47,090 bases of DNA from Escherichia phage HK630: the sequence record NC_019723.1; one strand, given 5' to 3'. Made by a program: the position numbers and the translations under genes. Shown here piece after piece: positions 1 through 42,951 of the stretch (position 1 is its first letter; each line of letters begins with the position of its first letter). Under the pieces are notes generated by a model. That model saw nothing but the letters and a program-made list of their open reading frames with translations. It searched no databases and had not been told where the DNA came from.

Positions 1-520
1 ATGGAAGTCAACAAAAAGCAGCTGGCTGACATTTTCGGTGCGAGTATCCGTACCATTCAGAACTGGCAGGAACAGGGAATGCCCGTTCTGCGAGGCGGTG
101 GCAAGGGTAATGAGGTGCTTTATGACTCTGCCGCCGTCATAAAATGGTATGCCGAAAGGGATGCTGAAATTGAGAACGAAAAGCTGCGCCGGGAGGTTGA
201 AGAACTGCGGCAGGCCAGCGAGGCAGATCTCCAGCCAGGAACTATTGAGTACGAACGCCATCGACTTACGCGTGCGCAGGCCGACGCACAGGAACTGAAG
301 AATGCCAGAGACTCCGCTGAAGTGGTGGAAACCGCATTCTGTACTTTCGTGCTGTCGCGGATCGCAGGTGAAATTGCCAGTATTCTCGACGGGCTCCCCC
401 TGTCGGTGCAGCGGCGTTTTCCGGAACTGGAAAACCGACATGTTGATTTCCTGAAACGGGATATCATCAAAGCCATGAACAAAGCAGCCGCGCTGGATGA
501 ACTGATACCGGGGTTGCTGA

Positions 521-33572: not shown

Positions 33573-34067
33573 ATGGATGTGTTATCTGGTATAACTGCCG
33601 CGAAACAGGCTTATGATCTGCTGAAGACAATAAAAGAAACCAGAGACGATGCTGTTATCGCTAAAGCTATTGGTGATCTACACCAAAGAATAACTGACTT
33701 ACAGATGCTTAATGCGGAGCTCTCTGGCCTTTATCAGGCCGAGAAGGAGATCGCAATGAAGCTTCGAGATGAAAATAGAAAAATCAAGATGTTTGTTGTG
33801 CAAGCTGAGAATTATGAACTTCATACAACTGAAGGTGGTTCTGTCGTGTATCGACCTAAGAGTCATTCCGATCATTCTATTCAGCAGCATAACCTTTGTG
33901 CACATTGCTTCGGCGAACATAAAATATCGATACTTCAACCAAGCACGGTTACTATAAAATCTAATGGATTCTTTGTGCATTCATGTCCTCGCTGTAAGAA
34001 TGAATACCGGATGTATAGAGCGCCAGACCCTAAGCCTGTATATGTACCGCCGCTGACAAATTATTAA
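33573..34067 (+). CDS. hypothetical coiled-coil / zinc-ribbon protein, transcribed opposite to the pL operon
   Basis: 164-aa ORF with SD AAGAGAG 8 nt upstream of ATG; helical heptad-like N-terminus; C-terminal CAHC...CPRC pairs; no lambda gene recognised here. Confidence 0.6.
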   Translation: MDVLSGITAAKQAYDLLKTIKETRDDAVIAKAIGDLHQRITDLQMLNAELSGLYQAEKEIAMKLRDENRKIKMFVVQAENYELHTTEGGSVVYRPKSHSDHSIQQHNLCAHCFGEHKISILQPSTVTIKSNGFFVHSCPRCKNEYRMYRAPDPKPVYVPPLTNY

Positions 34068-34097
34068 TTTTATTCCTGAAATGGCCTCTTCACCCCC

Positions 34098-34460
34098 TTA
34101 CTTTGTCAGGGGGATATCTCCTTCAGTTTTGACCATTCGCCTTAATACTTTCCTTAAGTCGATGTAAAGTTGAAGGTCTCCATTTGCTGCGGCATCAGCC
34201 ATTTTTTGCCTGACAAGCAGTAATGTTTCATACGGCTCAATAAGAATATCGTCATGAGTAATTAGGTGAAGCGTTGCCGCATCAACTATTCCTAGAGCTG
34301 CGCCAAGTATCAAAAATTCCCTGCTATTTTTGTCGCATGAGGAGATAAGCGTATTTAGCGCATACCTAATATTCTTTATAGCTGTTGTTAATGCTGCAAT
34401 TTCTTCTATGGCGTCTTCTCCAATGAGCTTTTTAAGCTCATATTTTTCTTCCTGACCCAT
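34098..34460 (-). CDS. hypothetical protein immediately downstream of N (position of lambda sieB)
   Basis: 120 aa from ATG 34460 (MGQEEKYELKKLIGEDAIEEIAALT...) with GAGGT SD; starts 3 nt after the N stop; not hydrophobic, so unlike SieB. Confidence 0.55.
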   Translation of the reverse strand: MGQEEKYELKKLIGEDAIEEIAALTTAIKNIRYALNTLISSCDKNSREFLILGAALGIVDAATLHLITHDDILIEPYETLLLVRQKMADAAANGDLQLYIDLRKVLRRMVKTEGDIPLTK

Positions 34461-34462
34461 AA

Positions 34463-34735
34463 TTACCTCGCCGTCAGTTGTTTTGATTTCCGGTAGCCTG
34501 CCGCGTAAATGGCTACGTTTGGCAGGCAAATACTTCCACTGCATTCTTCTGCCTTCTTGCAGCGAATGCTTCCGAGTGATGCTGCTTTATCTGCTCTGAC
34601 GCAACCAGAGAGCTTTAGCGCAATTTTTCGCGCCAGTCGCTGCTCTTGCATTGCCTGTTCACGTTGAGCCTGTCTGCGTGCTCTGCGGCGATTTCTGGCG
34701 TTATCGTCAGCCAGATATGTAATGACTACTGTCAT
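34463..34735 (-). CDS. N: N-like transcription antiterminator
   Basis: 90 aa; arginine-rich motif NARNRRRARRQAQREQ near the N-terminus; C-terminus ...LPNVAIYAAGYRKSKQLTAR resembles recalled P22 gp24; GGAGG SD; nut site downstream. Confidence 0.75.
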   Translation of the reverse strand: MTVVITYLADDNARNRRRARRQAQREQAMQEQRLARKIALKLSGCVRADKAASLGSIRCKKAEECSGSICLPNVAIYAAGYRKSKQLTAR

Positions 34736-34839
34736 GTTGACCTCCGATGATTGACTTTGGCGGTGACGCGCCGGGTGCTTATCTTCAGGTTGCCGTCGTG
34801 CAGCTGCACTTCACGTCACCCCAAAGCCAACTACTCTTT

Positions 34840-34885
34840 GGTTCCCGCATTTCGGCGGGACAATCCCATCAATGTTAAAGAGCCT
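34840..34885 (-). promoter_or_regulatory. nutL: nutL (boxA GCTCTTTAAC, boxB hairpin CCCGC-CGAAAU-GCGGG)
   Basis: On the leftward transcript, boxA-like CTCTTTAAC followed by a 5-bp stem/6-nt loop hairpin; the same boxB recurs at nutR. Confidence 0.65.
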
Positions 34886-34924
34886 GCCAATCTGTTCCGT
34901 TTGGCTTCCAGCGTCCTGCTGATG

Positions 34925-35035
34925 GCTAAAGAATACTGTAGGTATTTTATTGTGTAAATACCCAAGGTATTTATTTTTGATGAAATAATGATAAACAAAT
35001 GAATACAAAGGATATTTATTTTTTCGCTGTCTGCT
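34925..35035 (-). promoter_or_regulatory. OL / pL operator-promoter region
   Basis: Perfect 19-bp palindrome TAAATACCCAAGGTATTTA (34955-34973) plus imperfect copies GAATACTGTAGGTATTT (34931-34947) and GAATACAAAGGATATT; upstream of nutL and N. Confidence 0.6.
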
Positions 35036-35102
35036 TGTTCAGTGATTTTTATGCGGGATATGTGAAGTGGATCCCGATAGCTATTGCTGCCGGGATTATG
35101 GG

Positions 35103-35471
35103 TTAGTCAGCGAAGGTTAAGACGAGAATTACCTTAATGATGTCTGCTACAACAGACACGGCCATAGATAAACCAAAGACGATCCAAGCCACAGTGATGT
35201 CTTCACTACCATCGTATAGAGTTCCGTAATCACTGGTGTAAGGCGTAAATGTCGCGCCTTGATACAATAGGTATAAGCTTGATCCATAGAGGATAAATGC
35301 AGATATCCCTTGTATTGCTATGATCACAAGAATCATGAAACGAGCTGATCTATGCGCCCAAGCCTGGCTTATTTTTTCTGATAGAGATTTCGCAATAAAA
35401 GCATGCGCTAAGACGTAAATTGTCGAGATTGCCAACATCCCAAAAAAGCTTGCTATAGCGGTTCCAACCAT
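35103..35471 (-). CDS. hypothetical integral membrane protein co-transcribed with cI (position of rexAB)
   Basis: 122 aa from ATG 35471 (a TTG at 35492 would give 129 aa); about 3 predicted TM segments; AAGGGG SD; begins 18 nt after the cI stop. Confidence 0.65.
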   Translation of the reverse strand: MVGTAIASFFGMLAISTIYVLAHAFIAKSLSEKISQAWAHRSARFMILVIIAIQGISAFILYGSSLYLLYQGATFTPYTSDYGTLYDGSEDITVAWIVFGLSMAVSVVADIIKVILVLTFAD

Positions 35472-35488
35472 AATCGCCCCTTGCGTGA

Positions 35489-36205
35489 TCAAACCAGCCT
35501 TAGTTTTGTCTCAATTGCAACGCCTATAATCTTGCAGTTTCCATTGATTGGCACGAGAGGCCATGCAGGATTAAGTCCCTTGAGGTATTTATTTCCGCCG
35601 TCGATTATCAGCTTCTTGAATGTTGCTTCGTTAGAGTCAGAAAGTTTTGCTATGACCAAGCTGCCGTTGATCGCCTCCCTTCCGGTATCGAAAAGAACGA
35701 ATGTTCCCTCTGGAATGCTTAACCCAACCGGTGCCGTCATTGAATCACCTTCCACTTTAAGCCAGAACGCATTACCTTGAATATGCGCGTCAGACTCAAG
35801 CCAAACATCTATGTCTTTAATGGTGTATGGTTCGCATGCTTCACACCACGAGCCAGCCTGGATACTGCTTAACACCGGATACCTCTTTCCTGCTCTGTAT
35901 TCCCCTGCATACCTTACGTTGGCATCGCTCTTAAGGCTTTCTGCCTGTTCTGCAACCTTGGCAACAATTGACTGGCTAAAATCAGCAATAGAGACTTGCA
36001 ACAATCGTGCAAAACCAGATGCAACCTCAACGTTTAGCGCGTTTCTGCCATTAAGATAATGCCCTACCGCTCCTTGGGTGATACCCAGTTCATCAGCGAT
36101 TGAGTATTGGGTTATTCCCAATTCTTTCTTTTTTGACTCATACAAAGCCTTAAGCCGCTTAGCGTCTTCGAGCTGTTCTGTCGTCAGTGATTTTTTATTT
36201 TCCAT
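35489..36205 (-). CDS. cI: CI-family repressor (HTH N-domain + LexA/S24-like C-domain), non-lambda immunity
   Basis: 238 aa MENKKSLTTEQLEDAKRLKALYESKKKELGITQ...; C-terminal ...WLKVEGDSMTAPVGLSIPEGTFVLFD...ATFKKL... resembles CI/C2 autocleavage domains. Confidence 0.9.
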   Translation of the reverse strand: MENKKSLTTEQLEDAKRLKALYESKKKELGITQYSIADELGITQGAVGHYLNGRNALNVEVASGFARLLQVSIADFSQSIVAKVAEQAESLKSDANVRYAGEYRAGKRYPVLSSIQAGSWCEACEPYTIKDIDVWLESDAHIQGNAFWLKVEGDSMTAPVGLSIPEGTFVLFDTGREAINGSLVIAKLSDSNEATFKKLIIDGGNKYLKGLNPAWPLVPINGNCKIIGVAIETKLRLV

Positions 36206-36300
36206 AGCTTAATTCTAATAGCTAAGGTACTTAAACTAAAAATACCCTGAGTATTGATTGCTTTGAATACCTGTAGTATTCTTTGTTCATGGTTAATAAC
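36206..36300. promoter_or_regulatory. OR operators with divergent pRM/pR
   Basis: Operator-like palindromes AAATACCCTGAGTATT (36238-36257) and GAATACCTGTAGTATTC (36264-36283) between divergent cI and cro, same half-site as OL. Confidence 0.6.
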
Positions 36301-36311
36301 GGAGAGTGCAT

Positions 36312-36506
36312 ATGATTCGAATGACACTTGCCGATTACGCCAAAATCCATGGACAGGCTAAAGCAGCCAGTGACTTTGGTGTAATCCAGTGCGCTATCAG
36401 CAAGGCCATTCTGGCAGGCCGTAACATCATGGTTACGGTAAAGCCTGATGGCAGTGTGATTGGAGAGGAAGTTCGTCCTTTCCCAAGCAACAAGAAAAAC
36501 AAATAG
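36312..36506 (+). CDS. cro: Cro-like repressor
   Basis: 64 aa [64 protein letters not shown], similar to lambda Cro in the HTH and C-terminal PFPSNKK; GGAGAG SD. Confidence 0.88.
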
Positions 36507-36511
36507 TAACA

Positions 36512-36561
36512 CCGCTCTTTAACAGTCATGGTCCTCATTCCCGCCGAAATGCGGGAATACA
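36512..36561 (+). promoter_or_regulatory. nutR: nutR (boxA CGCTCTTTAA, boxB hairpin identical to nutL)
   Basis: CGCTCTTTAA at 36512-36521 and hairpin TCCCGCCGAAATGCGGGAA at about 36540-36560, between cro and cII. Confidence 0.65.
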
Positions 36562-36614
36562 ACGCGCATAAGTTGATGCGCATAACTTCTTATTTGTTAA
36601 GGAAATACTTACAT

Positions 36615-36893
36615 ATGCAACTTACAAGTACTCGCAAGAAAGCGAATGCAATTACAAGCAACATCCTAAATCGAATTGCTGTACGTGGTCAGCGAAAGGT
36701 TGCTGATGCATTAGGGATCAATGAATCGCAAATTTCGCGATGGAAAGACAGCTTTATCCCAAAGATGGCCATGCTTCTGGCTGTGCTGGAGTGGGGTGTT
36801 GAAGACGAGGAGTTGGCGGAACTGGCTAAGAAAGTAGCCAGAATGCTGACAAAAGAAAAAGCCCCGAAGAACGGCGAATTCTTCGAGGCCTAA
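36615..36893 (+). CDS. cII: CII-like transcriptional activator
   Basis: 92 aa from ATG 36615; ...[45 protein letters not shown] closely matches recalled lambda CII ([25 protein letters not shown]). Confidence 0.88.
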
Positions 36894-36927
36894 TGTAGAA
36901 AGACTGGATCAATCCACGGGAGTAATT

Positions 36928-37074
36928 ATGACAAAACAACTCAGTCCTTACCAGGACAAAATTCACAAACACATACTACGTGATCGCTTCCTGTCCAGCT
37001 TCAAGCAGCCTGGTCGATTCCGGGCTGAGTTGGAAAAAGTGAAGCTGATGCAGAAGGAGAAAGGTCATGAGTAA
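36928..37074 (+). CDS. small basic hypothetical protein (48 aa) overlapping the O start
   Basis: ATG 36928 with GGAG 8 nt upstream; [48 protein letters not shown]; below the ORF-track size cutoff. Confidence 0.35.
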
Positions 37075-37966
37075 CATATCTAATCTAGCCGAAGCCAGAG
37101 AGGCCAGAAGGCTACAACAACCGCATCAAAGCAGCGGTAAGGGGTATGCCTTGCTGCACCGTAAAATTATGGATGTGCCGTTTTACAAGGACGCAGAAGC
37201 AGCGCATCTGTGGGTTCACTTAATTCTCAAAGCAAAGCATACGCCTGAGTATGTAATGACTGACGCAGGAGAAATTCTGGTAGGCAGAGGGAAGCTACTT
37301 GGCGGTAGAAACTCTCTGGCGTTTGAAACAGGACTCAAACCAGATCGCGTTCAGTACCTGCTTAGAAAGTTCAAAAAACTCGGCATGATTGACTGGGTTT
37401 CACACGGTAAATTCTCAGTTTTCTCGGTAGAGAAATATGACGATTATCAGTCAAATTTTGTACCAGCAGATTACCAGCAAATTACCACCTCAAAGCCAGC
37501 AATACCAATGCCTGTAAGCAATACTGTACCAGCAGATTACCAGCAAATTACCACAGATAAAGAATATAATAATATTATCTCTAATACTGACGTATTAGAG
37601 AGTGCCACAGTAGACAAAAAGTCTGACAAGAAAAAACCTTCCGTTAGCTGTCAGGATGTTGTCGATGCTTACCACGAAATCCTTCCTGAAGCGCCAAAAA
37701 TCCGCGCACTGAATGACAAGCGTAAAAACCAGATCCGAACGTTCTGGCGCAAAGCCGGAGTGATAACCCGCCAGCTTGACGGGCATGGGTTCACGATGCA
37801 GGACTGGAGAAATTATTTGATCTACGTAGGCGAAAATTGCCGATGGATGTTCGAAGAACGCCCAAACCATCAACGCGGAACCGTCTGGCACAAAAAGGGA
37901 TTTGATTTCCTGCTTAACGACAATACCTACCTGAAAGTTCGTGAGGGTGAACACGATGACCGATAA
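37067..37966 (+). CDS. O: replication initiator (O-like), iterons embedded in the coding sequence
   Basis: 299-aa ORF at the position of lambda O; the internal direct repeats encode the duplicated [10 protein letters not shown] peptide. Confidence 0.8.
37460..37600. repeat. ori: replication origin: two 29-bp direct repeats (six ~11-bp TACCAGCA iterons) plus AT-rich stretch
   Basis: GTACCAGCAGATTACCAGCAAATTACCAC at 37460-37488 and 37526-37554, followed by AGATAAAGAATATAATAATATTATCTCTAATA. Confidence 0.65.
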
Positions 37967-39392
37967 TTTTTATGCGCCGCCCCATAGCATCGAGGCAGAG
38001 CAGGCGGTGATTGGTGGATTGCTTCTGGATGATGACAGCAGTGAGCGCGTCCAGAAAGTTCTGGCGATGCTGAAGCCTGACTCATTTTACAGCCGGCCAC
38101 ACAAAATCCTTTTCGAAGAAATAACCAGAATGCACCGGGAGCAAAAGCCAGTAGATGGCCTGACGCTTTTCGATGAACTGGAGCGTAAATCGTTAACGGC
38201 GTCTGTTGGCGGTTTTGCTTATATCGCTGAGATCGCAAAGAACACGCCGAGCGCCGCAAACATCGTTGCCTATGCAATGCAGGTTCGTGAAACCGCAATG
38301 GAACGCTACGCCATCAACCGCATGACTGAAGCGACGGAATTGCTCTATTCCCGCAACGGAATGACTGCAACGCAGAAGTACGAAGCTATTCAGGCGATTT
38401 TCACGCAACTGACAGACCATGCAAAAACCGGATCGCGTCGCGGCCTTCGCTCATTTGGTGAGGTCATGGAAGACTGGGTTAGCGACCTTGAGAAGCGATT
38501 TGACCCGTCAGGCGAACAGCGAGGAATGAGCACAGGGATCCCATCGCTGGACAGGATGCTGTCACCGAAAGGTCTGGTGAAAGGTTCTCTGTTTGTCATT
38601 GGCGCTCGCCCTAAGATGGGGAAAACGACGCTATACAGCCAGATGGCAATCAACTGCGCAGTGCATGAGAAAAAGCCCGCTCTGATGTTCAGCCTTGAAA
38701 TGCCAGGTGACCAGATACTGGAAAAACTGGTAGGGCAGAAGTCTGGTGTTAACCCGAATATTTTTTACCTTCCGGCGACAAATGACGCTGATGACGGCTA
38801 TCAGGGTGATTACGATGGTGACTTCAACAGGGCGATCGAAACAGCCAATCGCTTGAGTGAAATCGACATGCTTTACATCGACGACACGCCGGGATTATCT
38901 CTGGCTCAAATCGTCAGCGAAAGCCGTCGAATCAAGCGAGAAAAAGGATGTGTTGGCATGATTCTGGTCGATTACCTGACACTAATGACCGCTGAAAAGG
39001 CCGATCGCAACGACCTTGCTTACGGCATGATCACCAAAGGACTGAAGAACCTTGCCAAAGAGCTTGATTGCGTTGTTGTGCTTCTGACGCAGCTTAACCG
39101 CGCATTGGAAAGCAGAACCAATAAACGCCCATTACCAAGTGACTCACGAGATACAGGGCAGATTGAACAGGATTGCGATTATTGGGTGGGGATCCATCGT
39201 GAAGGCGCTTTTGATGACAGTGTTCCACCTGGTGAAACTGAACTAATCCTTCGTCTCAATCGTCATGGCAATACCGGCACGGTGTATTGCATTCAGGCAA
39301 ATGGCGCTATTTATGACACCGACCAACAGTCTGCTGAAATGCGCCGCCGTGAACGCGAGGAACCGCAGTCCAAGAAGAAAGGAGGATTCTGA
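37956..39392 (+). CDS. DnaB-family replicative helicase
   Basis: 478 aa from ATG 37956, overlapping the O stop; Walker A GARPKMGKTT and DnaB-like N-domain (SIEAEQAVIGGLLLD). Confidence 0.85.
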   Translation: MTDNFYAPPHSIEAEQAVIGGLLLDDDSSERVQKVLAMLKPDSFYSRPHKILFEEITRMHREQKPVDGLTLFDELERKSLTASVGGFAYIAEIAKNTPSAANIVAYAMQVRETAMERYAINRMTEATELLYSRNGMTATQKYEAIQAIFTQLTDHAKTGSRRGLRSFGEVMEDWVSDLEKRFDPSGEQRGMSTGIPSLDRMLSPKGLVKGSLFVIGARPKMGKTTLYSQMAINCAVHEKKPALMFSLEMPGDQILEKLVGQKSGVNPNIFYLPATNDADDGYQGDYDGDFNRAIETANRLSEIDMLYIDDTPGLSLAQIVSESRRIKREKGCVGMILVDYLTLMTAEKADRNDLAYGMITKGLKNLAKELDCVVVLLTQLNRALESRTNKRPLPSDSRDTGQIEQDCDYWVGIHREGAFDDSVPPGETELILRLNRHGNTGTVYCIQANGAIYDTDQQSAEMRRREREEPQSKKKGGF

Positions 39393-39420
39393 TGACCATC
39401 TACATCACTGAGCTAATAAC

Positions 39421-39453
39421 AGGCCTGCTGGTAATCGCAGGCCTTTTTATTTG
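39421..39453 (+). terminator. rho-independent terminator after the helicase gene (tR2-like)
   Basis: Stem AGGCCTGC/GCAGGCCT with 8-nt loop followed by TTTTTATTT. Confidence 0.7.
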
Positions 39454-39467
39454 GGGGAGAGTAAATC

Positions 39468-39674
39468 GTGGCTGAGTTGATTTTCTCTGCATTGAGGATT
39501 CTCGGTGCTATGTGGATGGTGGCGACGTTCATTGTGGTTGCCAGCAGTTTTGTCCGGTTGGTAGGCGAAGGTAAAGACCTGGTTGGTGTGCTTTTCGGTA
39601 GCATTTTTCTGTGGGTGATTATCGGTGTTATGCCTGTCGCTGTAGCAAAAATGGCGTGGCGTTTTGTTAGTTGA
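39468..39674 (+). CDS. hypothetical small two-TM membrane protein
   Basis: 68-aa ORF from GTG 39468 with GGGGAGAG SD; two hydrophobic helices, basic C-terminus KMAWRFVS. Confidence 0.5.
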   Translation: MAELIFSALRILGAMWMVATFIVVASSFVRLVGEGKDLVGVLFGSIFLWVIIGVMPVAVAKMAWRFVS

Positions 39675-39681
39675 GGTGACA

Positions 39682-40092
39682 ATGAAGCAAACAATCTTCC
39701 TCCGAACTAAGCAACAACAGCAAGCTGCAATAAATGCCATCCTCGCAACACCACTCGATAAAGACAAGCCAGTCACCATCCGCATTACTGACTACAAGCG
39801 CAACCTTGACCAGAACGCAAAATTTCACGTGATGCTGGCGGATATCGCTCGTCAGGTTCAATGGTGCGGCAAATGGTTAAAACCGGAACAATGGAAGGTT
39901 TTGTTGATCAGCGGTCATGCAGTGGCTACAAAGCAGGAAGCTGATGTTTTGCCCGGCCTTGAAGGCGAATACGTCAACATTCGCGAAAGCAGCGCGCAGA
40001 TGAGCGTGAAGCGCATGGCAAGCCTGATTGAGTACACGACAGCATGGGCTATTGGTCAGGGTGTCAGATTTACCGACAGGAGGTACGAATGA
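39682..40092 (+). CDS. ninB: NinB (Orf-family recombination mediator) homologue
   Basis: 136 aa from ATG 39682 with GAGGTGA SD; ...[27 protein letters not shown]... resembles recalled lambda NinB (RSLDQNRKLWACLGDVSRQVEWHGRWL) but is divergent. Confidence 0.75.
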
Positions 40093-40265
40093 GACGACAG
40101 CGACGAAGTTTCACCGACATCATCTGCGAAAACTGCAAATACCTTCCAACGAAGCGCTCCAGAAATAAACGCAAGCCAATCCCAAAAGAATCTGACGTAA
40201 AAACCTTCAACTACACGGCTCACCTGTGGGATATCCGGTGGCTAAGACATCGTGCGAGGAAATGA
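40089..40265 (+). CDS. ninE: NinE
   Basis: 58 aa [58 protein letters not shown]; ATGA overlap with the ninB stop. Confidence 0.8.
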
Positions 40266-40669
40266 CAATGCTTTTAATTCAACCTGGATTTGGCCTTAGC
40301 ATCAAAAAAGGGCACATGTTTGGCGAGAAAGAGTCTCAACGAAAAATGGTGTCTATCCAGTTGCCATTTATCAGTATTTTATGGCTAAACAGGGAGGCAA
40401 CAAATTATTGGTATACATGCGCCAGAGCAGCATTTAACGACCCTGACTGGTTTGTGGAAAACCACCACGCAGTTCGTCAGGCAAAGAGAAAGGCCAATAC
40501 GACATACATGAAGGCGTATCGAAAAGCATGGAAAGAACACCGCGATCGATACCAACAAGACATGGAAAAACTTGAATCAGAAAACATGGAATTAAGACGA
40601 AAGCTTGGTGAAGCAAAACGAGACATTGATGCTTACAAGCGACTTTTTAATGGTGAAAGCCATGCTTAG
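40262..40669 (+). CDS. hypothetical protein between ninE and ninF (NinX-like position)
   Basis: 135 aa from ATG 40262 (ATGA overlap with the ninE stop); C-terminal coiled-coil-like region; absent from lambda. Confidence 0.55.
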
Positions 40670-40838
40670 CCCATCCCAATACATTCAATACCAGAAAGAA
40701 AGCGTCGAGCGGGCTTTAACGTGCGCTAACTGCGGTCAGAAGCTGCATGTGCTGGAAGTTCACGTGTGTGAGCACTGCTGCGCAGAACTGATGAGCGATC
40801 CGAATAGCTCGATGCACGAGGAAGAAGATGATGGCTAA
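40662..40838 (+). CDS. ninF: NinF
   Basis: 58 aa [58 protein letters not shown], near-identical to recalled lambda NinF. Confidence 0.8.
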
Positions 40839-41442
40839 ACCAGCGCGAAGACGATGTAAAAACGATGAATGCCGGGAATGGTTTCACCCTGCATTCGCTA
40901 ATCAGTGGTGGTGCTCTCCAGAGTGTGGAACCAAGATAGCACTCGAACGACGAAGTAAAGAACGCGAAAAAGCGGAAAAAGCAGCAGAGAAGAAACGACG
41001 ACGAGAGGAGCAGAAACAGAAAGATAAACTTAAGATTCGAAAACTCGCCTTAAAGCCCCGCAGTTACTGGATTAAACAAGCCCAACAAGCCGTAAACGCC
41101 TTCATCAGAGAAAGAGACCGCGACTTACCATGTATCTCGTGCGGAACGCTCACGTCTGCTCAGTGGGATGCCGGACATTACCGGACAACTGCTGCGGCAC
41201 CTCAACTCCGATTTAATGAACGCAATATTCACAAGCAATGCGTGGTGTGCAACCAGCACAAAAGCGGAAATCTCGTTCCGTATCGCGTCGAACTGATTAG
41301 CCGCATCGGGCAGGAAGCAGTAGACGAAATCGAATCAAACCATAACCGCCATCGCTGGACTATCGAAGAGTGCAAGGCGATCAAGGCAGAGTACCAACAG
41401 AAACTCAAAGACCTGCGAAATAGCAGAAGTGAGGCCGCATGA
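40828..41442 (+). CDS. ninG: NinG (Rap-like Holliday junction endonuclease)
   Basis: 204-aa ORF with Cys clusters, lambda NinG position. Confidence 0.88.
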
Positions 41443-41645
41443 CGTTCTCAGTAAAAACCATTCCAGACATGCTCGTTGAAGCATACGGAAATCAGACAGA
41501 AGTAGCACGCAGACTGAAATGTAGTCGCGGTACGGTCAGAAAATACGTTGATGATAAAGACGGGAAAATGCACGCCATCGTCAACGACGTTCTCATGGTT
41601 CATCGCGGATGGAGTGAAAGAGATGCGCTATTACGAAAAAATTGA
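41439..41645 (+). CDS. ninH: NinH
   Basis: 68-aa ORF overlapping the ninG stop. Confidence 0.8.
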
Positions 41646-42288
41646 TGGCAGCAAATACCGAAATATTTGGGTAGTTGGCGATCTGCACGGATGCTACACG
41701 AACCTGATGAACAAACTGGATACGATTGGATTCGACAACAAAAAAGACCTGCTTATCTCGGTGGGCGATTTGGTTGATCGTGGTGCAGAGAACGTTGAAT
41801 GCCTGGAATTAATCACATTCCCCTGGTTCAGAGCTGTACGTGGAAACCATGAGCAAATGATGATTGATGGCTTATCAGAGCGTGGAAACGTTAATCACTG
41901 GCTGCTTAATGGCGGTGGCTGGTTCTTTAATCTCGATTACGACAAAGAAATTCTGGCTAAAGCTCTTGCCCATAAAGCAGATGAACTTCCGTTAATCATC
42001 GAACTGGTGAGCAAAGATAAAAAATATGTTATCTGCCACGCCGATTATCCCTTTGACGAATACGAGTTTGGAAAGCCAGTTGATCATCAGCAGGTAATCT
42101 GGAACCGCGAACGAATCAGCAACTCACAAAACGGGATCGTGAAAGAAATCAAAGGCGCGGACACGTTCATCTTTGGTCATACGCCAGCAGTGAAACCACT
42201 CAAGTTTGCCAACCAAATGTATATCGATACCGGCGCAGTGTTCTGCGGAAACCTAACATTGATTCAGGTACAGGGAGAAGGCGCATGA
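41623..42288 (+). CDS. ninI: Ser/Thr protein phosphatase NinI
   Basis: 221 aa from [25 protein letters not shown]...; metallophosphatase motifs GDLHG, GDLVDRG, GNHE. Confidence 0.9.
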
Positions 42289-42908
42289 GACTCGAAAGCG
42301 TAGCTAAATTTCATTCGCCAAAAAGCCCGATGATGAGCGACTCACCACGGGCCACGGCTTCTGACTCTCTTTCCGGTACTGATGTGATGGCTGCTATGGG
42401 GATGGCGCAATCACAAGCCGGATTCGGTATGGCTGCATTCTGCGGTAAGCACGAACTCAGCCAGAACGACAAACAAAAGGCTATCAACTATCTGATGCAA
42501 TTTGCACACAAGGTATCGGGGAAATACCGTGGTGTGGCAAAGCTTGAAGGAAATACTAAGGCAAAGGTACTGCAAGTGCTCGCAACATTCGCTTATGCGG
42601 ATTATTGCCGTAGTGCCGCGACGCCGGGGGCAAGATGCAGAGATTGCCATGGTACAGGCCGTGCGGTTGATATTGCCAAAACAGAGCTGTGGGGGAGAGT
42701 TGTCGAGAAAGAGTGCGGAAGATGCAAAGGCGTCGGCTATTCAAGGATGCCAGCAAGCGCAGCATATCGCGCTGTGACGATGCTAATCCCAAACCTTACC
42801 CAACCCACCTGGTCACGCACTGTTAAGCCGCTGTATGACGCTCTGGTGGTGCAATGCCACAAAGAAGAGTCAATCGCAGACAACATTTTGAATGCGGTCA
42901 CACGTTAG
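42285..42908 (+). CDS. Q: late gene antiterminator Q
   Basis: 207-aa ORF with zinc-binding CRDCHGTG...CGRCKG, lambda Q. Confidence 0.93.
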
Positions 42909-42951
42909 CAGCATGATTGCCACGGATGGCAACATATTAACGGCATGATAT

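Follow-up and report, generated by a model that had tools for sequence, protein, structure and literature searches.

What lies between the replication genes and ninB of Escherichia phage HK630, and is it a gene at all? In the genome record NC_019723.1 (47,090 nucleotides; hereafter the window), a transcription terminator at 39421-39452 is followed by a 68-codon open reading frame (ORF) that begins with GTG. By its sequence the terminator is the classical tR2 of phage lambda; it lies inside a second short reading frame, ninA, and the 68-codon frame behind it is very probably a real, translated gene for a membrane protein. For the account as a whole, that is, tR2 within ninA, followed by an accessory, N-gated gene whose product would form a membrane hairpin and act in the bilayer, we estimate a probability of about 0.6. 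The features of the locus are as follows.

37956-39392, plus strand: DnaB-type replicative helicase, the analogue of gene P (Pfam DnaB_C 2.8e-60, DnaB 3.4e-31)
39392-39475, plus strand: ninA, 27 codons (MTIYITELITGLLVIAGLFIWGRVNRG), reading through tR2 (read from sequence)
39421-39452, plus strand: tR2 intrinsic terminator, 8-bp stem, 8-nt loop and T-run (terminator scan, fold and lambda identity)
39456-39459, plus strand: Shine-Dalgarno (SD) element GGAG, 8 nt before the GTG, within GGGGGAGAG just after the T-run
39468-39674, plus strand: 68-codon gene for a predicted two-helix membrane hairpin protein (PHROG 1165), GTG at 39468, TGA at 39672-39674
39682-40092, plus strand: ninB, an Orf-type recombination mediator (Pfam NinB 3.1e-55)

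The 68-codon frame as a gene

A first-pass annotation, made from the letters alone, had described a GTG-initiated frame with a good SD between a helicase gene and ninB. Both flanks are confirmed by the Pfam matches listed, and the frame itself stands as described. The helicase, which is annotated at the equivalent position in HK75 and HK629, ends with TGA at 39390-39392. The stop codon of the 68-codon frame and the ATG of ninB are only 7 nt apart, and the SD of ninB (GAGG, 39673-39676) overlaps that stop. Every locus examined keeps the SD in front of the GTG, as GGGGGAGAG or GGGGGAGGG; in lambda, the corresponding GGAG element serves ninB.

Is the frame translated? Its product matches the PHROG 1165 profile with E=3.5e-37, residues 1-68 aligning to profile positions 1-68 of 68. 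This family (category: function unknown) includes HK75 gp43 ('unknown'), HK629 gp52, HK022 gp58, gp69 of Stx2-converting phage 86, mEp213 gp58 and SPN9CC_0027, all encoded directly after tR2, as in the window. Homologues fall into 205-242 protein clusters at 90% identity, from Escherichia or Salmonella throughout and every one named 'hypothetical protein'. The family is narrow, since an exhaustive search of 1.84 billion representatives returned only 17 clusters at 50% identity.

The length of the frame is strictly kept. It measures exactly 68 codons in each of nine distinct alleles from phages, with identities as low as 44%, and in 75 of the 80 IMG/VR loci, the remaining five being left unresolved by the motif search. 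The start codon occupies a constant position and reads GTG in E. coli phages and ATG in Salmonella phages. Shorter versions are annotated in HK629 (54 residues) and mEp235 (52 residues), both starting at an internal Met; this start is unsupported, because other alleles lack that Met. Pairwise dN/dS amounts to 0.25-0.35 for diverged pairs, and their differences lie mostly in third positions. The remaining two sense frames are closed in 9/9 alleles. Among the antisense frames, one is closed in 9/9 alleles and two are open in several, including that of the window, each being stopped in some close relatives. Five residues (W16, W49, G53, K61 and W64) are invariant even in relatives of 30-37% identity, and six more (V32, G35, D37, F47, P56 and V57) are nearly so in the same comparison.

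How widespread is it? Near-identical DNA, or its 3' third, occurs in 502 of 5426 complete E. coli genomes (~9%), where PGAP names the product 'hypothetical protein'. Approximately 105 phage records encode a homologue, as compared with 404 records that match the tR2 region, and 321 bp around the locus are 100% identical in HK75 and HK629. HK620 (L004, NC_002730) carries an intact 68-codon homologue, 56% identical, at 1501-1707 between ninA/tR2 and ninB, for which RefSeq/GenBank lists no coding sequence.

In lambda the stop codon of ninA overlaps the ATG of ninB (TCATGA), and nothing lies between tR2 and ninB. The window departs from lambda right after GGGGGAGAG, with 214 bp added that carry the 68-codon ORF. 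The accessory status proposed earlier thus applies to this gene, which lambda lacks. Its assignment to the ren/tR2 slot requires correction: the ren slot lies upstream of tR2, and the ORF lies downstream, between ninA/tR2 and ninB. Nor are ren and the ORF alternatives to each other, because the two occur together in mEpX1, where a Ren-like gene precedes tR2 and the 68-codon ORF follows it. We are dealing with a non-essential accessory gene, already deposited and clustered as hypothetical, next to two textbook features of lambda, tR2 and ninA.

What kind of protein would it encode? Kyte-Doolittle averages over 19 residues peak at 2.15 (residues 11-29) and 2.49 (window 41-59, in a stretch of ~38-60), and the grand average of hydropathy (GRAVY) is 1.49. 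AlphaFold2, given a 17-sequence alignment, models a helical hairpin with helices at 2-33 and 38-67 (mean pLDDT 89.9). Both analyses reproduce the two hydrophobic helices noticed at first pass. The loop between them, G-E-G-K-D (G-x-G-K-D in the family), comprises 4-5 residues, and no soluble domain is present. Judging from this model, the product is presumably an inner-membrane protein of two transmembrane (TM) helices, TM1 and TM2, joined by a short loop. The 'basic tail' of the first description is there but modest: its basic residues amount to K61 and R65 in AKMAWRFVS. Charges add up to +1 at the N-terminus, +1 to +2 in the loop and +2 at the C-terminus. At 0.48-0.49 the G+C content resembles that of the surroundings and is not atypical; the strong excess of G and T results from hydrophobic codons.

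Database comparison placed the protein in no functional family. Pfam, NCBIfam and PADLOC scans of the 68 residues gave no match (in Pfam none at E<=0.1), the defence HMMs of PADLOC-DB 2.0 gave 0 families at E<=1, a profile and sequence search of the PDB gave no match, and Foldseek against BFVD and PDB gave none below E=0.001. The Foldseek matches to ATP synthase c-subunits and designed TM proteins, none of them at E<0.001, are generic TM hairpins. A permissive Pfam scan of 17 family members returned T4SS_pilin (E=0.015, 7/17), DUF6773 and Phage_holin_3_6 (E=0.6, 3/17), which we set aside as a generic likeness between hydrophobic two-helix proteins. Two paralogue candidates, one in SPN9CC (another ORF of 68 aa) and one beside the distant homologue in locus L013 (68/69 aa), proved to be unrelated Cys-rich proteins.

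tR2, ninA and the route of expression

Is the hairpin upstream of the gene a functional terminator? It consists of the stem arms AGGCCTGC (39421-39428) and GCAGGCCT (39437-39444), an 8-nt loop (TGGTAATC) between them and the T-run TTTTATTT (39445-39452). Six of its 8 pairs are G-C in the terminator scan, the hairpin is present in the minimum-free-energy fold, and the U-run follows directly 3' of the G+C-rich stem, as expected for an intrinsic terminator. Sites of this kind are not enriched in the window (12 by the generic scan vs 7.8 +/- 2.6 in shuffles). The identity with lambda is more telling. More than 50 nt are identical to lambda tR2 (1 occurrence in the window vs 0 expected), and hairpin and T-run match it base for base (lambda 40,596-40,640 region; L003 1097-1138). 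From the ATG of ninA at 39392 through GGGGGAGAG the two phages differ by one synonymous C/T change in ninA and are otherwise identical (L003 1069-1138). The position, after the replication genes and before ninB, is that of lambda as well, and the element is annotated as 'terminator' in HK75 and as 'tR2' in HK620. The clean intrinsic terminator reported at first pass is therefore borne out, and we call it a terminator because it is identical to the characterised lambda tR2, not on the strength of the scan. Lambda tR2, of identical sequence, has a maximal in vivo termination efficiency of ~0.9 (PMC4824070). In one IMG/VR locus (among L015-L094), arm and loop of tR2 are tandemly duplicated (CAGGCCTGCTGGTAATCGCAGGCCTGCTGGTAATCGCAGGCC), and an intact 68-codon ORF follows.

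The first-pass annotation had overlooked ninA, which spans the terminator and overlaps the GTG. Its ATG shares one base (A, 39392) with the helicase stop (TGATG at 39390-39394), and its own stop, TGA at 39473-39475, overlaps the start of the 68-codon ORF by 8 nt (GTGGCTGA, 39468-39475). The ninA product is hydrophobic. Kroger and Hobom (1982; cited in PMC4824070) were the first to describe the ORF, in the ninR region of lambda; it is annotated in HK620 and SPN9CC and is found in 35 of the 39 exact-motif IMG/VR loci, the ones whose upstream region was parsed. Across phages the ninA ATG overlaps the stop codons of at least 5 different upstream genes, and the 8-nt overlap with the 68-codon start is kept in every allele, with a stop codon that varies (TGA mostly, TAA in mEp213 and the Salmonella phages). 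Chaining of genes by ATGA-type overlaps is known for nin regions (PMC8022706). Together with the kept overlaps, this suggests that ribosomes are handed over from the helicase to ninA and on to the 68-codon ORF; those terminating ninA are probably delivered to its GTG. The NinA start site is active and 'not weak', and its translation cuts termination at tR2 by only ~10% (PMC4824070).

Two further observations concern ninA. The tblastn matches of the 68-codon ORF in HK620 and SPN9CC came with ninA features, but ninA is a separate ORF of 27 codons, and 'NinA' was therefore rejected as a name for the longer one. In HK022 (L005 1440-1450) the ninA ATG is absent, and the TAA of the upstream gene abuts the first base of the tR2 hairpin. 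Such a geometry of stop and hairpin should let the terminating ribosome suppress termination (PMC4824070).

When would the gene be transcribed? Three features of the immunity region bear on this question.

34463-34735, minus strand: N-type antiterminator (Pfam N_peptide PF25694, 1.1e-15)
36254-36289, plus strand: promoter pR (exact match to a feature of HK620, 'putative' there)
36513-36558, plus strand: nutR (exact match to a feature of HK620, 'putative' there)

Within 36254-36558 lie pR, cro and nutR, and with them the only promoter and N-utilisation site upstream in the operon; the N-type antiterminator is needed for read-through of tR1 and tR2. We located nutR through the HK620 annotation. 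The boxA consensus CGCTCTTA had yielded a single match, inside cI, no more than chance. A sigma-70 scan found no promoter-like site on either strand in 36000-42950. The T-run and the GTG are just 15 nt apart, and the gap from the stop to ninB measures 7 nt, which leaves no room for a private promoter or terminator; the two marks of a self-contained 'moron' (its own promoter and its own terminator) are absent. A transcript terminated at tR2 does not reach the SD, so that the gene would be carried only on N-modified, read-through transcripts. We consider this N-dependent, tR2-gated mode of expression likely on the anatomy of the operon. Expression from pR under N argues against an exclusion gene that is expressed in the lysogen: the anatomy points to an N-dependent delayed-early gene, not to a self-contained moron or a prophage-expressed toxin cassette.

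Allelic exchange and candidate roles

How has the locus been assembled? Over 68% of 25000-47090 the window is 99.9% identical to lambda, and the region of immunity and replication shares 98% identity with HK620 (34000-41000 compared). The ninA-tR2-68-codon unit keeps varied company, with at least 5 upstream junctions and at least 4 downstream partners (ninB, a PF26207-like protein and others). The comparison with HK620 also reveals exchange within the gene.

39478-39617, plus strand: in-frame allelic cassette, codons ~4-50, comprising TM1, loop and the first part of TM2 (HK620 comparison)

Within the cassette, nucleotide identity to HK620 is ~50% without indels, as against 97-100% in the flanks. 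Synonymous divergence (dS) is saturated in the N-terminal part and reaches 0.4-0.5 in the C-terminal part. In two recombinants, P0160 and P0163, the allele type changes behind the G35-K36-D37 loop. These boundaries and recombinants indicate that TM1 and the loop act as an exchangeable allele, and TM2 with the C-terminus as the constant part.

More distant relatives set bounds to the linkage with tR2. P0134 (L014, 30% identical) is found on another lambdoid contig. The O and DnaC-like genes and a pair of small ORFs precede it, and it is chained to a PF26207 protein. For P0129 the setting is an unrelated phage-like operon. Because P0134 is not preceded by tR2, the linkage characterises the E. 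coli/Salmonella lineage but does not extend to the family as a whole. A small protein of the pattern W..WQASRAAIEIE...AIRAAGIKVKE (PF26207, Phage_phiTE_015-like) is encoded directly after the 68-codon gene in HK022, mEp235, mEp213 and L014, and near it in SPN9CC and L013. We considered it as an obligate partner and rejected it: being absent from the window, HK75, HK620 and Stx2-86, it is a frequent neighbour, not a required one. Its positions, by comparison locus, are:

L005, 1719-2036: PF26207-like protein
L007, 1719-2033: PF26207-like protein
L010, 1719-2090: PF26207-like protein
L014, 4189-4452: PF26207-like protein
L006, 1937-2443: PF26207-like protein
L013, 1600-1890: PF26207-like protein

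The window as a whole is a natural chimera, lambda-like arms around an HK620-like segment; another breakpoint is found near 40250, past the HK620-like stretch to which ninB belongs.

What might the protein do? In the account that we prefer, the 68-codon gene was inserted between ninA/tR2 and ninB, at the start of the lambdoid nin region. RNA polymerase from pR, modified by N, would pass tR2, giving delayed-early expression in the lytic cycle and silence in the repressed prophage. Translation would start at the GTG by means of the GGAG inherited from the tR2 module, probably aided by ribosomes that terminate ninA at GTGGCTGA. Because the protein has no extramembrane domain and a loop of only 4-5 residues, it would have to act inside the bilayer. 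The hairpin may bind a membrane protein of host or phage, or self-associate, and in this way may modulate the cell envelope during lytic infection, for instance by blocking the entry of secondary DNA or by weakening a membrane-based response of the host. Specificity for the partner would reside in the variable TM1 half, with the conserved TM2/C-terminal half (W49, G53, P56, K61, W64) as the constant core. That the protein is an intramembrane binder or modulator rather than a pore or toxin is a tentative preference, at somewhat short of even odds; lysing or poisoning of the cell appears less likely. It is possible to go further and see here a new class of lytic-phase intramembrane effectors, with TM1 as a swappable specificity cassette, TM2 and the C-terminus as scaffold, and gating by N/tR2 and ninA. 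The target could then be a host inner-membrane protein, such as a component of a DNA-entry channel or a membrane-acting abortive-infection effector. This extension, which draws on two deeply diverged TM1 alleles swapped in frame between otherwise near-identical phages, we hold to be doubtful.

Some considerations weigh against the preferred account. A weak or non-canonical promoter could escape a simple sigma-70 scan, and the ~10% read-through of tR2 could give low expression independent of N. The charges of the protein only weakly favour a topology with both termini inside, which leaves its orientation ambiguous. The allelic cassette may represent ordinary lambdoid mosaicism instead of a specificity determinant. 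In addition, P0134 has no tR2 in front, and a full-text literature search found no paper on the 68-codon ORF.

Could the stretch make no functional protein and serve as a spacer, or as an RNA- or DNA-level element after tR2, the ORF being fortuitous? The frame is short, the HK620 RefSeq record leaves it unannotated, and HK629 and mEp235 annotate a shorter version with another start. Against this, the frame stays exact in length and free of indels through ~50% nucleotide divergence, with dN/dS <0.35 and invariant Trp, Gly and Lys residues. At the level of RNA, the Rfam scan of 38800-40300 gave no family and the fold of the region is not unusually stable (z = -1.3), and we regard this explanation as very improbable indeed. 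A membrane-damaging toxin or pore former, akin to Hok, TisB and GhoT or to holins and viroporins, would form oligomers and either depolarise the inner membrane or make it permeable. The small size, the GRAVY of 1.49 and the two TM helices would suit it, as would the conserved G53-x-x-P56 and the small-residue pattern in TM2, the length and TM number shared with class II pinholins, and the tight shielding of the gene behind tR2, which would be appropriate for a toxic product. This idea had been raised at first pass, together with a likeness to exclusion peptides; the likeness stands for size and topology and ends there, as shown by the Pfam, NCBIfam, PADLOC, PDB and Foldseek results given above. 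The best toxin or holin match in Pfam is Phage_holin_3_6 at an insignificant E value, and the protein has neither the charged C-terminal tail nor the dual-start motif that typify holins. The adjacent genes are ninA and ninB, not an antitoxin gene; neither a minus-strand promoter-like site nor an Rfam match was found, with unconventional antisense RNA outside the reach of these scans. Depolarisation from a delayed-early operon would come prematurely and lower the phage yield, and the late region, 99.9% identical to lambda, includes what we take to be the lambda lysis cassette. A toxin or pore is thus rather unlikely.

Two further explanations invoke exclusion. In one, the gene is a superinfection-exclusion or defence moron (SieB-, Rex- or HK97 gp15-like) that is expressed in the lysogen and protects the prophage-bearing cell. 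A small accessory membrane protein with a patchy distribution among lambdoid phages and allelic diversity in TM1 would be consistent with such a role. The operon is not: between pR and 42951 there is no promoter-like site, a terminator of ~90% efficiency stands 16 nt upstream of the start codon with no space for a promoter after it, and the 7-nt gap to ninB holds no terminator. PADLOC found no match, and nothing would be exposed to an incoming phage, because the presumably periplasmic loop has only 4-5 residues. A moron of this type is improbable. The other is a specific version of our preferred account, a lytic-only exclusion or anti-defence factor that would block DNA entry in the manner of T4 Imm or counter membrane-based abortive infection. 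The delayed-early timing deduced from the operon structure and the membrane hairpin fit it, the swapped TM1 alleles suggest partner specificity, and the gene adjoins the position of lambda ren, which protects against Rex exclusion. Against this, no Pfam family, Imm included, resembles the protein in sequence; in this specific form we judge the explanation unlikely.

Two other ORFs of the window were noticed in connection with exclusion. At 35103-35492 (minus strand), directly downstream of cI and in the slot of lambda rexAB, lies a strongly hydrophobic multi-helix ORF of 129 codons, corresponding to HK620 hkaS ('hypothetical') and without a Pfam or PADLOC match. It is a more plausible candidate for a membrane exclusion protein expressed in the lysogen than the 68-codon ORF. 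At 33573-34067 (plus strand), an ORF of 164 codons runs opposite to pL transcription and overlaps tL1 as annotated. In HK620 this ORF is hkaP, with the note 'putative superinfection exclusion protein'; it has a C-terminal Cys/His-rich motif, no Pfam match and a weak PADLOC match (Cas10 model, E=0.0011).

What is gained? The finding is real but ordinary, and no new principle is indicated. Its main yield is annotation: the correct GTG start of the 68-codon gene, which HK629 and mEp235 annotate too short, and the unannotated homologue in HK620. Beyond this, ninA, tR2 and the 68-codon gene can now be seen as one translationally chained unit, with an in-frame allelic cassette over TM1. The gene occurs in roughly 1/11 complete E. 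coli genomes, including many Stx-converting phages, and a defined function would therefore be useful for the biology of prophage induction in Shiga toxin-producing E. coli (STEC). The candidate functions of interest are envelope modulation, lytic-phase exclusion and anti-defence.

Comparison with known systems

How does the locus compare with systems already described? With the lambda tR2/ninA region it shares the sequence, the position after the replication genes and the ATGA-type overlaps with neighbouring genes. Lambda differs in having ren upstream and the ninA stop on the ninB ATG, where the window has a DnaB-type helicase and the extra 68-codon gene. From the other members of PHROG 1165 nothing of substance separates it; those of HK629 and mEp235 are only annotated shorter.

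T4 Imm (Imm_superinfect) is a small, early two-TM protein that blocks the entry of superinfecting DNA. The 68-residue protein resembles it in size class, in its two predicted TM helices and in what appears to be early lytic rather than prophage expression. It differs in phage lineage and in sequence, with no match to Imm_superinfect at E<=10 among 17 family members in Pfam. The class II holin (pinholin) S68 of phage 21 likewise has 68 aa and two TM domains, and length and number of helices are what the 68-residue protein has in common with this class. In contrast to a class II holin, its gene resides in the delayed-early pR operon, between helicase and ninB, instead of a late lysis cassette beside an endolysin, and the protein lacks the dual-start motif, the highly charged C-terminus and a significant match to a holin family. 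Hok/Gef, TisB and GhoT are comparable as small, very hydrophobic peptides that insert into the membrane. Hok and TisB possess one helix, compared with two in the 68-residue protein, and the 68-codon gene, without a match to these families, is translationally chained into a phage operon. The resemblance to T4 Imm, class II holins and toxin-antitoxin toxins thus stops at size and helix count; in the family features that can be tested, the 68-codon gene and its product depart from them.

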